Assembly: GCF_055900595.2 (NCBI RefSeq)
Contig: NZ_CM148325.1
DNA length: 64,000 nt
Direction: 5' to 3' (one strand)
Below, piece after piece: positions 44,060 to 50,509 of the stretch (the first letter of the stretch is position 1; each line of letters begins with the position of its first letter). The notes beneath the pieces are model-generated. The model did not search any database. It was not told the origin of the DNA and saw only the letters and a list, made by a program, of their open reading frames with translations. The position numbers were made by a program, and so were the translations under genes.

Positions 44060-45300
44060 ACTAGTCTTGGTATAAGTTGACACTTTTCTGTCTGTAAAAC
44101 GCCTGATGAACGTCATAGGGCGTTTTGTATTTCAGAGCCAGGTGTGGCCGCTCATGGTTATAAATTGCCACGGACTCTTGGACCATTTCCCGGGCCTGAG
44201 CCAGGTCTGCAGGACGCGAGAGTAAAAACTCATTTTTCAGGGTACCATTTATTCACTCAGCCAATGCTGGTAGCAGTCATAACCATCAGTCATTGAACAG
44301 GTTATTTCATTTCTTTCATGAACTGACTGATAGAGCGCTGAACAGTATTGCAGCCCCTGCCAGAATGATGCACCAGGGGACTCGTCGTTTTTCTCAGCTT
44401 CAGCACCTGTCTGAACGCTTTTACCACATTTTCTGTCTGCAGGTTTTCCCCAACATGGTAGCCCATAATTTTTCTGGAGCAGGCATCGGTGACCAGACTC
44501 AGATAGGCCGAACTATTGCGCAGTGGAAGGTAAGTAATATCGGCGACCCGGACCTGTTCTGGTTCAAGAGCAGTAACCTGTTCAGGGCCTGGTTTAAGCA
44601 GGTTTGGATGTCGGTAGAAGCGATGATGGCTGTTGGTAGTTTTGTGATATGACCGTTTTACTGGCACCAGGAGTCGGTATTCATCGGGCAGGTTAAACAG
44701 GCGGTCTCGCCCGATATTCAGCCTTTTATCGGCCTGAGTGTTCAGCAGATAGTGCAGCTTACGCGCACCGATTCGGGGCTGACGACATCTGACACGGGCA
44801 ACAAAATCAAGAACCTGAGCATGATGTTCCTGCCGTTTTCTGCGCCTTGCATTGTCCTGATACCATGCCTGTCTGCTGTGTCCCAGGAACAGACTGCACG
44901 CGTCACAGTTATTTTGGGGACCGGACTTTGCGCGAGGACTTGCCGGGCCGCTTTTTACGATACTCACCCCGTAATCATTTTTCAGGACATTGATAACTGA
45001 CTCAAAAAACGTAGCTTTCTGGTTCGCCAGCTCAAGCTACGTTTCAAGTTCCCTGATTCTTTGCTCGGGTGTGAGCGGGATAGTTGTCTGAGTCACAGGC
45101 AGTTTCCTCTTCACCAGCTCAGGAAGTCCAGGATATTTACGTAACCAGACAAGAACGGTGGAGCGCCCCTGAATGCCATACCGCTGCTGGGCCTGTTTAT
45201 AAGTCATCTCGCCTTTTTCAACCTGCTCAACAACAGCTATTTTAAAGGATAGAGGATAATCACGTTGGGTGCGTTTGAGCTAAGTCATCATTACGTTCTC
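44060..45300 (-). mobile_element. IS3-family element with frameshifted orfA/orfB
   Basis: orfA-like (...IAVVEQVEKGEMTYKQAQQRYGIQGRSTVLVWLRK...) at ~45000-45300 and orfB-like (44302..44967 plus C-terminal pieces) with stops; boundaries approximate. Confidence 0.45.
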
Positions 45301-45535
45301 CGGATTTAAGTAGGAACGTGTCAACGCTATTCAGGACGGGTCACATATTTGAAATAAAGCTCAATGGCGCGGATTTTTTCTTCTTCAGTAAACATGTTTC
45401 ATCTCCTGAGAGTCCAGGAAATCGTCCGCATCCCCATTACTGTCTTATATCATTGGCGCTGACAGCTATTCTGCTGAGCCTTGAGGATGCATAAACGGGT
45501 TAAGAGCTTGTATGTGCAGAACGATAGCGGAACTA

Positions 45536-46688
45536 AATAGCTGCGCGGAATAGTAGATCACTTTGAGGGAGCTCAGCCTGGATTGTGCGATCTGATCAAT
45601 CGCCAAATCAAAACAAATCACCAACCGGACTGAGCAATGCCGATCATAGCACCAATTTCCCGTGACGAACGACGCCTGATGCAGAAAGCCATCCATAAAA
45701 CACACGATAAAAATTATGCCCGCAGACTGACTGCCATGCTGATGCTGCACCGGGGCGACCGTGTCAGCGACGTTGCCAGAACGCTCTGCTGCGCCCGTTC
45801 CTCTGTTGGATGTTGGATTAACTGGTTCACGCAGTCGGGTGTTGAGGGACTGAAATCATTACCTGCCGGGCGAGCCCGTCTCTGGTCGTTTGAGCATATC
45901 TGCACACTGTTACGTGAGCTGGTAAAACATTCTCCCGGCGACTTTGGCTACCAGCGTTCACGCTGGAGTACAGAACTGCTGGCAATAAAAATCAATGAGA
46001 TAACCGATTGCCAGTTAAATGCCGGAACCGTTCGCCGCTGGTTGCCGTCTGCGGGGATTGTGTGGCGAAGGGCTGCGCCAACTCTGCGTATCCGTGACCC
46101 GCATAAAGATGAAAAGATGGCAGCAATCCATAAAGCACTGGACGAATGCAGCACAGAGCATCCGGTCTTTTATGAAGATGAAGTGGATATCCATCTTAAT
46201 CCCAAAATCGGTGCGGACTGGCAACTGCGCGGACAGCAAAAACGGGTGGTCACGCCGGGACAGAATGAAAAATATGATCTGGCCGGAGCGCTGCACAGCG
46301 GGACAGGTAAAGTCAGCTATGTGGGCGGCAACAGCAAAAGTTCGGCGCTGTTCATCAGCCTGCTGAAGCGGCTTAAAGCGACATACCTTCGGGTGAAAAC
46401 CATCACACTGATCGTGGACAACTACATTATCCACAAAAGCCGGGAAACACAGCGCTGGTTGAAGGAGAACCCGAAGTTCAGGGTCATTTATCAGCCGGTT
46501 TACTTGCCATGGGTGAATCATGTTGAACGGCTATGGCAGGCACTTCACGACACAATAACGCGTAATCATCAGTGCCGCTCAATGTGGCAACTGTTGAAAA
46601 AAATTCGCCATTTTATGGAAACCATCAGCCCGTTCCCCGGAGGCAAACATGGGCTGGCAAAAGTGTAGTGGTATTAGGCGCAGCTATT
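45536..46688 (+). mobile_element. IS630
   Basis: Exactly 1153 bp between terminal inverted repeats AATAGCTGCGC.../...GCGCAGCTATT, flanked by TA on both sides within a C-TA...TA-G context (CTAG target, TA duplication). Confidence 0.9.
45637..46668 (+). CDS. IS630 transposase
   Basis: 343-aa ORF MPIIAPISRDERRLMQKAIHKTHDKNYARRLTAMLMLHRGDRVSDVARTL..., Tc1/mariner-type DDE transposase. Confidence 0.9.
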   Translation: MPIIAPISRDERRLMQKAIHKTHDKNYARRLTAMLMLHRGDRVSDVARTLCCARSSVGCWINWFTQSGVEGLKSLPAGRARLWSFEHICTLLRELVKHSPGDFGYQRSRWSTELLAIKINEITDCQLNAGTVRRWLPSAGIVWRRAAPTLRIRDPHKDEKMAAIHKALDECSTEHPVFYEDEVDIHLNPKIGADWQLRGQQKRVVTPGQNEKYDLAGALHSGTGKVSYVGGNSKSSALFISLLKRLKATYLRVKTITLIVDNYIIHKSRETQRWLKENPKFRVIYQPVYLPWVNHVERLWQALHDTITRNHQCRSMWQLLKKIRHFMETISPFPGGKHGLAKV

Positions 46689-46699
46689 TAGATGATCTC

Positions 46700-47160
46700 T
46701 TTAACGATCTCGGTCGTAGTATAAACTTTTTTGATAAATAAATAGAGACCTGTCCAGGCAATCTGAATGCTGTCAGCGTATTGCAAAAGCTAAAGGCATT
46801 GGTCCTGAAATTGTCACGAGCGTTGTTGCTGTTATTATTGGCAAAGGCACTGAATTTAAGAATGATCGTCACTGTGCTGCATGGCTTGGTCTGCTTCCAT
46901 GCCTGCACTAGAGTTGCTGCAGGTAAGTTCTCATGAATATAACGAAAAAAGGCGACAAGCATCTGCAAACACTTTTTATTCATGGCGTCCGTGCTGTCGT
47001 TAGAGTTGCTACGAATAATAATGATGTATACCTAAATCAGTGGGTTAAGCAGTTAAAGGAGAGTCGCGAATTTAATAAAACTACTGTGGAGATTGCTAAC
47101 AAATACGCGAGAATAATCTGGTCGATGCTGATAAATGATACAGAATATCAGGCAGTGTGA
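46700..47160 (+). pseudogene. IS110-family transposase C-terminal remnant (IS630 is inserted beside or within it)
   Basis: ...GIGPEIVTSVVAVIIGKGTEFKNDRHCAAWLGLLP... and 46933..47160 ...TTVEIANKYARIIWSMLINDTEYQAV. Confidence 0.4.
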
Positions 47161-47824
47161 AGTTAATCTCTTTCAGCAAAAGTTGCAGCGTACTGAGAAA
47201 TGGTGACGGGTTGCACCTGCACAATCGGAACCTGATTTTTGTACTGGCCTCAGAGGTCGTCCAGTTGTAGAGGCGATTGTGTGTGGATTCCCTATTTGGG
47301 CACAGGTTTTCCTGATGCCGGATAGATGTAAGCAACAATCCAAAACCAGAATCAGTGCTTGCAAAACTGAGGTAGTCAATAGATGTAGTAAGTGGCTTCA
47401 GAAATACCGGCTTCCCGACAAACATCTTTAATTGTTCGTCCGGTTTCAACCGATTTAATTACAGCGATGATCTAATACTCAGTAATACGGGCTTTACGCA
47501 TAGCGATTTTCTTCGTTATCAGATTGATTATTCCGGATGATCTCTAAATATGAATGGAGCGATTATGCGGGATACTTACAGATGGCTCTCACTTAATGAG
47601 AGTCTTCTTTCAAACAACAAAAACAGTAAATTGGGTAGAATGGGGAACTTAACTGCATCGTTAATTAATATATGGATGCGCTGTTGTAAAATATAGATGT
47701 ATCGGGGATAATAATACTTTACTCTGTTTCCAGCGAGTATGTTTGGTTTGCTGGACAAAGCGCCTCATAAAGTCAGAGGCGCTCAAAGTAGAAATATATT
47801 TCAGAGGGAATGTATCATAATGTA

Positions 47825-48109
47825 CTAGTGGTTCTTTGATGGTATATCAAAAATGTTTGTGTGAACTGTATAACAGCCCTCCAGTAGTGATGCTAGCCAT
47901 TTGAAAGATTTCTGCTGTTCTGAAGACCATCTGGAATTATTTGATTCAAAATGAATGAATGCCAGTATTTGTATCATCTGTTCCTTAGGAAGCGATGAAG
48001 CCAGATATGAAAATGCAACCGTGAGAGCATTCATGTCGTCTCGAAGCATTGACATGTACTCGAGTAATTCCTGCAGAGTAATTGTTCTATTGTCCATAAA
48101 ACTCCTCAT
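47825..48109 (-). CDS. Hypothetical protein, divergent from iha
   Basis: 94-aa ORF in AT-rich DNA; no recognisable family; may be spurious. Confidence 0.2.
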   Translation of the reverse strand: MRSFMDNRTITLQELLEYMSMLRDDMNALTVAFSYLASSLPKEQMIQILAFIHFESNNSRWSSEQQKSFKWLASLLEGCYTVHTNIFDIPSKNH

Positions 48110-48421
48110 TATTAATTATATTCACCTGTCTGATGTACGAAATATCCGATAGTGTATGATTAACATATCCAAGGACAAGAAACTGATAAAGATTGGATAA
48201 ATACCCATAGTGCAAAAATCCGATATGGATCGTCAACGATTGCTATCCGTTACTTTCCCCTAGAGAAAAGAACGTCCTCAACTGAAATTCGGGGTATAGT
48301 AGAACCTTATGTAATATTTTGTAATTTTTTGCTTTTTTATGTAAAAACCAAAAGCAAATCATTCTCATTATCTCTTGCGTTTGTTTATCTTCTCTCTGAT
48401 TAATATAATCGGAGAGAAGAT

Positions 48422-50509
48422 ATGCGAGTAACCACTCTGGCTTCAGTAGCCATCCCTTGTCTCGGGTTTTCAGTCAGCAGTATGGCTGCGGAAGATGTGA
48501 TGGTAGTCACGGCGTCTGGCTATGAAAAAAAATTAACCAGTGCAGCTGCGAGTGTTTCAGTGATCAGCCAGGAGGATTTGCGATCCAGCCAGTATCATGA
48601 TCTGGGGGAGGCACTGAGATCCGTAGAGGGGGTGGATGTTGAAAGCGGTACGGGTAAAACAGGTGGGCTGGAAATCAGCATCCGCGGAATGCCTGCCAGT
48701 TATACGCTGATACTGATCGATGGTGTCCGTCAGGGCGGGAGCAGTGACGTAACCCCAAACGGTTATGCTGCCATGAATACGGGTTTTATGCCACCTCTGG
48801 CCGCCATCGAACGTATTGAGATTATCAGGGGCCCCATGTCCACTCTGTACGGCTCTGATGCCATGGGGGGCGTGGTGAATATCATCACCAAAAAGAATGC
48901 AGACAAATGGCGCTCTTCGGTTAATGCCGGGCTGAACCTGCAGGAAAGTAACAAATGGGGGAACAGCAGCCAGTTTAATTTCTGGAGCAGCGGTCCCCTT
49001 GTGGATGATTCACTCAGCCTTCAGGTACGTGGCAGCACACAGCAGCGTCAGGGCTCATCGGTCACATCACTGAGCGACACCTCAGCTACGCGTATCCCTT
49101 ATCCCACGGAATCACAGAATTATAATGCAGGTGGTCGTCTTGACTGGAAAGCGACGGACAAGGATGTACTCTGGATTGATATGGATATCGCCCGGCAGCG
49201 TTATGATAACCGAGATGGCCAGCTGGGCAGTCTGACGGGCGGTTATGATCGCACCCTGCGCTATGAGCGTAATAAAATTTCAGCAGGCTATGATCATACA
49301 TTCACCTTCGGAGCCTGGAAGTCATCCCTGAACTGGAATGAGACGGAAAATAAAGGCCGTCAGCTTGTACGTAGCGTACTGCAGCGTGATAAATGGGGGC
49401 TTGCCGGCCAGCCGAGGGAGCTTAAGGAGTCGAATCTTATCCTGAGCTCATTACTGTTTGCACCTCTGGGGGAATCACACAAGGTTACCGTCGGTGGTGA
49501 GTATCAGAACTCCTCCATGAAAGACGGGGTTGTTCTCGCCAGTACTGGTGAAACCTTCCGTCAGAAAAGCTGGTCGGCATTTGTTGAGGATGAGTGGTAT
49601 ATCACGGATGCATTTGCACTGACTGCGGGTAGCCGCTATGAACGCTATGAGGTGTTCGGAGGACACTTCAGTCCCCGGGCATATATGGTCTGGGATGTGA
49701 CTGATGCGTGGACGCTGAAAGGTGGGGTGACCACGGGATATAAGGCGCCCAGCATGGGGCAGTTACATAAGGGGATCAGCGGTGTGTCCGGTCAGGGGCG
49801 TACGAATCTTCTCGGTAACCCGGACCTGAAGCCGGAGGAGAGTGTCAGTTATGAAGCGGGCGTGTATTACGATAATCATGCCGGTCTGAACGCCAATATC
49901 ACGGGCTTTATGACAGAATTCTCCAACAAGATCGTATCTTATTCCATTGATGATAATACCCGCAGCTACACAAACAGCGGAAAGGCTAGGACTCAGGGCG
50001 TGGAATTTGCCGGCACACTGCCTCTGTTGTCAGAGGATGTGACTCTGTCTCTGAATTATACCTGGACGCAGAGTGAACAACGGGATGGGGATAATAAAGG
50101 TGCACCACTGAGTTACACCCCTGAGCATATGGTGAATGCGAAACTGAACTGGCAGATTACTGAAGAGGTGACATCATGGCTGGGTGCCCGTTACCGCGGG
50201 AAAACGCCACGTTTCACCCAGAATTATTCGTCACTCTCAGCTGTACAGAAGAAAGTGTATGATGAGAAAGGTGAATATCTGAAAGCCTGGACGGTACTGG
50301 ATGCGGGCATGTCGTGGAAAGTGACGGATGCACTGATGCTGAATGCAGCGGTGAATAATGTGCTTAACAAGGATTACAGTGACGTAAGTCTGTATCGTGC
50401 CGGCAGTGGTACGCTTTATGCGGGTGATTACTTCCAGACGGGGGCATCGACAACGGGTTATGTGATACCTGAGAGAAATTACTGGATGTCGCTGAACTAT
50501 CAGTTCTGA
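48422..50509 (+). CDS. iha: Iha (IrgA-homologue adhesin), TonB-dependent catecholate-siderophore-receptor-type outer-membrane protein
   Basis: 695-aa ORF, signal peptide, plug and 22-strand barrel features, C-terminal ...YQF; sequence recognised as Iha. Confidence 0.85.
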   Translation: MRVTTLASVAIPCLGFSVSSMAAEDVMVVTASGYEKKLTSAAASVSVISQEDLRSSQYHDLGEALRSVEGVDVESGTGKTGGLEISIRGMPASYTLILIDGVRQGGSSDVTPNGYAAMNTGFMPPLAAIERIEIIRGPMSTLYGSDAMGGVVNIITKKNADKWRSSVNAGLNLQESNKWGNSSQFNFWSSGPLVDDSLSLQVRGSTQQRQGSSVTSLSDTSATRIPYPTESQNYNAGGRLDWKATDKDVLWIDMDIARQRYDNRDGQLGSLTGGYDRTLRYERNKISAGYDHTFTFGAWKSSLNWNETENKGRQLVRSVLQRDKWGLAGQPRELKESNLILSSLLFAPLGESHKVTVGGEYQNSSMKDGVVLASTGETFRQKSWSAFVEDEWYITDAFALTAGSRYERYEVFGGHFSPRAYMVWDVTDAWTLKGGVTTGYKAPSMGQLHKGISGVSGQGRTNLLGNPDLKPEESVSYEAGVYYDNHAGLNANITGFMTEFSNKIVSYSIDDNTRSYTNSGKARTQGVEFAGTLPLLSEDVTLSLNYTWTQSEQRDGDNKGAPLSYTPEHMVNAKLNWQITEEVTSWLGARYRGKTPRFTQNYSSLSAVQKKVYDEKGEYLKAWTVLDAGMSWKVTDALMLNAAVNNVLNKDYSDVSLYRAGSGTLYAGDYFQTGASTTGYVIPERNYWMSLNYQF

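Follow-up and report, generated by a model that had tools for sequence, protein, structure and literature searches.

The question raised by this locus is whether an insertion sequence that is complete from end to end can still move. The element lies in a pathogenicity island within a window of 64,000 nucleotides, by which we mean the whole stretch of DNA analysed here (contig NZ_CM148325.1 of the NCBI RefSeq assembly GCF_055900595.2). A previous reading, made from the letters of the window without database searches, had counted it among the few uninterrupted transposase genes of the region, which is supported by the annotation of the region, and had taken it to be potentially active. The coordinates of the element and of its surroundings are collected in Table 1.

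Table 1. Features of the IS630 locus; positions refer to the window
Feature	Position	Strand	Basis
IS3-family element terminus, 122 bp, removing the 5′ half of the IS110 remnant	45344..45465	-	
IS110-family remnant, left piece, about codons 159-182 of a 338-codon homologue, degraded	45466..45535	+	colinear with the right piece in alignments to homologues
Target TA, left duplicate, preceded by C at 45533	45534..45535	.	read directly and gapless restored junction
Complete IS630 copy, 1153 bp, diverged allele	45536..46688	+	indel-free alignment to IS630 copies of Shigella
Left inverted repeat of 29 nt, imperfect apart from its outer 11 nt, AATAGCTGCGC	45536..45564	+	inverted-repeat search
Transposase gene, 343 aa, open; HTH_23/HTH_32 N-terminal, DDE_3 C-terminal	45637..46668	+	ORF, Pfam, NCBIfam
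Right inverted repeat, perfect in its outer 11 nt, GCGCAGCTATT	46660..46688	-	inverted-repeat search
Target TA, right duplicate, followed by G at 46691	46689..46690	.	read directly and gapless restored junction
IS110-family remnant, right piece, degraded 3′ half of transposase gene to about 47160, then conserved non-coding tail	46691..47337	+	

Identity and boundaries of the element

The element is colinear over 1153/1153 positions, with zero indels, with four Shigella and E. coli plasmid copies annotated as IS630, at an identity of 97.9-98.0%. These reference copies were taken from virulence plasmids of S. sonnei, S. dysenteriae and S. boydii and from related E. coli plasmids, where they are annotated as 'IS630-like element IS630 family transposase'. 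Compared to the copies on S. sonnei pSS_046, the identity is 97.9% on the nucleotide level and about 96% on the amino acid level. Since all 1153 positions align without an indel and the termini match those of the Shigella copies, the element is, as judged by sequence, IS630 itself in the form of a slightly diverged allele, and an indel-free alignment over the whole 1153 bp makes it more than a chance similarity. Matsutani et al. are said to have published, in 1987, a length of 1153 bp for IS630. An exact-length IS630 had also been the proposal of the sequence-only reading, with an alignment to the IS630 reference as the suggested check; this alignment turned out to be colinear over the full length, and no mismatch in length or in the outer 11 bp of the termini appeared.

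The ends of the element can be read directly. AATAGCTGCGC is located at 45536-45546 and its complement GCGCAGCTATT at 46678-46688, which delimits exactly 1153 bp, and the flanks are C-TA (45533-45535) upstream and TA-G (46689-46691) downstream, just as had been stated before. In an inverted-repeat search, the top-ranked and longest inverted repeat of the region has its arms at 45533-45564 and 46660-46691 (32 nt, 78% complementary). Without the three flanking bases, this is a 29-nt imperfect inverted repeat with 22/29 matches, the outermost 11 of which are perfect. In the alignment, the first 35 nt are the same as in the S. sonnei, S. dysenteriae and S. boydii copies, and the E. coli plasmid copy of IS630 has a single private difference in this part, at 45560. 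The outer 11 nt of the right end are likewise the same in the copies of these three species. Two differences to the Shigella copies were found in the right inverted repeat, one of them private (46669) and the other an ancestral state in common with ISEc33 (46677).

The single ORF at 45637-46668 (plus strand) encodes 343 aa and is uninterrupted by any stop or frameshift; the earlier statement that the transposase is intact thus holds for its reading frame. Both HTH and DDE_3 domains are detected by Pfam in this one ORF (DDE_3, 1.8e-22; HTH_23, 1.5e-9; HTH_32), and the NCBIfam model of the IS630 transposase, NF033545, gives 244.6 bits at a cut-off of 100, compared to 258.5 bits for the canonical protein. 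In an alignment of 33 family sequences, the columns of D181 and E297 are invariant and that of D261 is nearly so. The window protein has kept all three, which by motif are the presumed catalytic triad, and D261 and E297 are separated by 35 residues; the invariant residues D181/E182/D184, N262 and E297 are all present. A sequence search found no relatives among solved structures. Those defining features of IS630 that can be checked in silico, namely length, termini, target with its duplication, and domain architecture, are all present in this copy.

Insertion site and target duplication

In a passage of PMC6811581, which cites Tenzen and Ohtsubo (1991), CTAG is given as the target of IS630. Flanks of the form CTA...TAG were observed in 6/6 IS630 and IS630-like copies that we examined from other contexts. 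For the locus studied here, the empty site was reconstructed by deleting 1153 bp together with one TA and joining the flanks. The joined flanks align to an IS110-family gene of E. coli CFS3292 with a gap-free junction, and they also match intact elements of the ISSaen1/ISKpn2 type on Salmonella and Klebsiella plasmids at 83-85% identity. The multiple alignment shows only one gap close to the junction, a compensated indel of one base that lies about 45 bases further left. The insertion point corresponds to about codon 182 of a homologous IS110-family gene of 338 codons, and with homology on both sides of it, an IS110-family remnant as the host site, as previously suggested, is supported. Because the reconstructed site aligns without a gap to intact IS110-family elements, the flanks fit a duplication of TA at CTAG. 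The proposal that TA was duplicated at a CTAG inside this remnant is therefore supported, at the level of a restored junction.

At the site itself, the homologues, of about 83% identity, have CTCT and not CTAG. As they have GAACTCTATGAT in place of the GAACTAGATGAT of the reconstruction, the CTAG before insertion, a reconstructed and not an observed sequence, is particular to this degraded IS110 copy. The sequence-only reading had also proposed to look for other copies and for empty CTAG sites. A search of the whole window gave no further IS630 copy. No exact empty site (left flank, TA and right flank, 600 nt) was found in 5426 complete E. coli genomes, where the two halves match only separately, and the exact 27-nt junction pattern had zero matches in a collection with one genome for each of 100,044 species; the TA duplication thus rests on the homologues of about 83% identity.

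It could be argued that the flanks belong to the element or agree by coincidence, and that the junction was produced by deletion or recombination rather than by simple insertion. The region is indeed a patchwork of rearranged IS fragments, and the absence of an exact empty site from the collections searched would agree with such an origin. However, the two flanks are adjoining segments of one IS110-family gene, they become gapless only with exactly 1153 + 2 bp removed, and the joined construct matches the intact homologues in one piece over 717/717 bases, which makes an origin other than simple insertion extremely improbable.

Concerning the supply of targets, the window contains 41 CTAG sites, whereas 158 ± 11 are expected from dinucleotide-preserving shuffles. 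This four-fold under-representation fits the known scarcity of CTAG in E. coli, and such rarity limits the targets open to IS630.

Distribution of the allele

At an identity of at least 99%, the allele is present in 58/5426 complete E. coli genomes (about 1%). All 58 of these records also hold both flanks (element plus 200 bp on each side), and the right flank taken separately is found, again at an identity of at least 99%, in 58 records. An index of public assemblies has the exact protein in 4590 blocks, from which 32 contigs were read, leading to 10 listed places. In 10/10 of them, the element and 200 bp per side are identical base by base, save one flank mismatch in two, and iha is situated at the same distance. 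In the 58 genomes and the 32 further contigs, the allele occupies one locus only, beside iha; SCU-115 and SMS-3-5 are examples of carrier strains. No second location was detected in the 5426 complete E. coli genomes, in 72,556 plasmids or in the assemblies sampled, and no copy above 98.0% identity exists among the 72,556 plasmids. In most of the carrier genomes the copy is 100% identical, and the majority of them have no other IS630-related copy. Intermediate alleles with part of the derived changes were found neither on plasmids (best 98.0%) nor in the class of E. coli copies represented by strain Nissle 1917.

Apart from complete copies, lone fragments that correspond to the terminal 53-56 bp of IS630 at its right end, followed by TAG, recur, unannotated and at 98% identity, in many E. 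coli chromosomes (for example NZ_CP026641.1, 3675323-3675378, and NZ_CP038859.1, 328166-328218). In appearance, they are what an old IS630 left behind of its right end, since become fixed.

Substitution pattern of the transposase gene

The window allele differs at 24 nucleotides from the copy on the S. sonnei Ss046 plasmid, and 16/24 of these differences are private to it. Changes were polarised with ISEc33 and one O157 copy as outgroups and counted by the method of Nei and Gojobori. On the window branch, 11 of 14 coding changes are nonsynonymous and 3 synonymous (dN/dS about 1.1), whereas between IS630 and ISEc33 20.5 nonsynonymous stand against 98.5 synonymous changes (dN/dS 0.04). The difference between the two ratios is significant (Fisher p = 5e-6).

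Ten amino acid changes are derived in the window protein: R59C, R82L, P84S, G124D, Y214D, R251L, A253V, S290L, V323I and V330I. In the 33-sequence family alignment, 8/10 affect columns with a conservation of at least 90%, and the columns of P84S, Y214D, R251L and A253V are invariant across all 31 database relatives. The large clusters among these 31 relatives, and abundant clusters are presumably active lineages, depart from the family at just 1-3 such conserved columns, compared to 8 for the window protein. The family-profile score is 702 bits for the window protein and 730 bits with the ten changes reverted. As far as can be told by motif, R59C would lie in the first HTH, R82L and P84S in the linker between the HTH motifs, R251L and A253V just ahead of the strand bearing D261, and S290L seven residues before E297.

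How much an open frame tells about activity can be roughly estimated: with 19 coding substitutions, about 40% of neutral histories would keep the frame open, so that an open frame is weak evidence of activity.

Transposition activity and its possible loss

The observations are best explained by a structurally whole copy that is probably no longer an effective autonomous element. We assign a probability of roughly 75% to this loss of autonomy, based on the combination of neutral drift, drastic changes at invariant residues and the lack of a second location. [quoted passage not shown] The target was a CTAG in the middle (about codon 182/338) of a transposase gene of the IS110 family, with ISKpn2/ISSaen1 as relatives; this gene is now a pseudogene, truncated further on its left side by an IS3-family element. 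Since its insertion, the copy has been stationary and passed on passively with the island, its gene changing at a neutral rate. Changes at invariant residues in the HTH and linker region and near the catalytic residues would be expected to weaken the transposase, and the ten substitutions probably weaken or abolish autonomous transposition.

The opposite view, which goes along with the potential activity proposed in the sequence-only reading, is that of an autonomous and currently active IS630, able to excise and to reinsert at other CTAG sites. It can draw on the open frame of 343 aa, on Pfam and NCBIfam domains that all score far above threshold, on the retained invariant residues D181/E182/D184, N262 and E297, and on terminal 11-bp repeats that are perfect and the same as in the Shigella copies. 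Nevertheless, evidence against an active element comes from an allele confined to one location in 5426 genomes, 72,556 plasmids and the sampled assemblies, from a dN/dS of about 1.1 on its branch as opposed to 0.04 in the family, and from drastic changes at otherwise invariant residues (Y214D, R251L, P84S and A253V). In addition, a promoter/terminator scan found no sigma-70-like promoter within the element, which is weak evidence against activity as IS promoters are typically poor. With a single locus, a branch without constraint and 8 conserved residues hit, the claim of potential activity is not supported, and we consider a currently active copy unlikely.

Some of these arguments have limits. 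Given the complete ORF, the retained D181, D261 and E297 and both termini intact, the sequence gives no proof of inactivity. A dN/dS of 1 on the branch is no proof of a dead enzyme either, because any copy that has not moved, mobile or not, would show it, and the absence from other loci could reflect a very low natural activity of IS630 instead of a dead enzyme. Since the termini are intact, mobilisation in trans by a working IS630 transposase would in principle be conceivable. Two further readings, which we think unlikely, are that the transposase still works and the copy is a rare, natural mobile variant of IS630, perhaps with altered DNA binding through R59C, R82L and P84S, or else that it is a non-autonomous copy that an incoming Shigella-type IS630 might mobilise.

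A further explanation for an open frame would be domestication, that is, selection by the host for the protein or for the element as a promoter or insulator beside iha, in the service of the island. The copy is 100% identical in most carriers with its frame open, and iha, which is on the same strand, follows 1.7 kb downstream. The identity among carriers is, however, explained equally well if the island has spread recently, the element is separated from iha by degraded IS110 sequence and other remnants, a promoter-like site was not found in the scan, and the substitution pattern bears no mark of purifying selection on the protein. Domestication was rejected on the dN/dS of about 1.1, and we regard it as very improbable.

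For annotation, the locus carries a caution: that an element is active does not follow from perfect ends and a transposase frame free of interruptions, and the distribution and substitution pattern here indicate a stranded copy instead. Knowledge of IS630, of its CTAG/TA target and of its cut-and-paste mechanism dates back to about 1990, so that this is an already-known element in ordinary decay, of little significance beyond annotation.

Comparison to related elements

The IS630 of Shigella sonnei, found on pSS_046 and on other virulence plasmids of Shigella and EIEC, shares with the window allele the length of 1153 bp, the single ORF of 343 aa, the CTA...TAG flanks, the outer 11-bp repeats and the first 35 nt. 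In contrast, the window allele has its 16 private nucleotide changes and ten amino acid changes, eight of them at strongly conserved positions. Whereas Shigella plasmids carry 4-8 copies of IS630, the window allele is single and fixed at one chromosomal site. ISEc33 and the O157-type elements of E. coli have the termini AATAGCTGCGC, the CTAG/TA flanks and a similar protein of 343 aa, but their nucleotide identity to the window allele is about 88% only; the O157 copy examined is itself frameshifted.

Next-closest among the E. coli copies examined is the type found in E. coli Nissle 1917, which carries 0 of the derived changes of the window allele. It resembles the window copy as an IS630 at one chromosomal locus with 97.9% identity and CTA/TAG flanks, but it has a 43-bp internal deletion (corresponding to 46256-46298 of the window), is annotated as frameshifted and is located at a different place. 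The same two-piece match of 97.9% recurs in many E. coli genomes (7/60 rows sampled, about 400 other genomes), and because of this recurrence the Nissle-type copy can be counted as another stranded IS630. In Nissle 1917, the copy (251038-252147) adjoins ISEc45 and a CbtA/YeeU toxin-antitoxin pair.

More distantly, ISY100 and the Tc1-mariner elements have in common with IS630 two N-terminal HTH motifs, a DDE catalytic domain and the duplication of a TA target. Their sequences are distant, and IS630 additionally favours a TA within CTAG. Cut-and-paste transposition was demonstrated in vitro for ISY100, in a paper that also summarises IS630 (PMC2170065).

The island and the nested insertion sequences

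The window is 99.9% identical to positions 472.7-522.7 kb of the E. coli SCU-115 chromosome. A pathogenicity island extends from about 5440 to 50000 of the window and comprises iucABCD-iutA (aerobactin), sitABCD, sodC, an ibrAB-like pair and iha. These genes are interleaved with about 30 transposase pseudogenes (IS3, IS110, IS66, IS21, ISL3, IS1, IS256 and IS200), and the ltrA gene of a group II intron in the island has an internal stop. The iucD gene is annotated as frameshifted in SCU-115; in the window (7781-9130), there is no stop-free frame across the gene and the longest open run is 426 aa. The IS630 insertion stably marks a single lineage of this iha/aerobactin/sit island, which about 1% of the complete E. 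coli genomes carry, and it helps to order the nested IS insertions by which the island was built.

The left flank of IS630 is composite, with an IS3-family terminus followed by 70 bp of IS110-family sequence (45466-45535). In comparison to ISKpn2, to a Salmonella IS110-family element and to the copy in E. coli CFS3292, this left piece lies in line with the right piece. The right flank, which starts at 46689, has an identity of about 83% to intact genes of the IS110 family; where the locus is identical in other E. coli, its annotation is that of a frameshifted transposase fragment without N-terminus. Several stops and frameshifts are found in the IS110 version of the window, about codons 1-158 are missing, and the remnant may extend beyond 47337.

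Two distinct IS3-family fragments meet at about 45344-45347. The first, 45136-45347, matches one element at 91-97%. The second, 45344-45465, cuts off the IS110 remnant and is 99.2% identical to the end of another IS3-family element, of which E. coli E200086 has an intact copy (positions 2501-2622 of locus L003).

A scan of 44800-48500 against Rfam gave only matches at chance level, and none to the 3′ tail of the IS110 remnant. This non-coding tail (47161-47337) is 89-92% identical to the copies in ISKpn2, the Salmonella IS110-family element and CFS3292, while the coding part next to it reaches merely 80-83% with the same elements. The stronger conservation of the non-coding end compared to the gene suggests a functional RNA or a recombination site. 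In some genomes, IS110-family elements carry the annotation 'RNA-guided transposase'.
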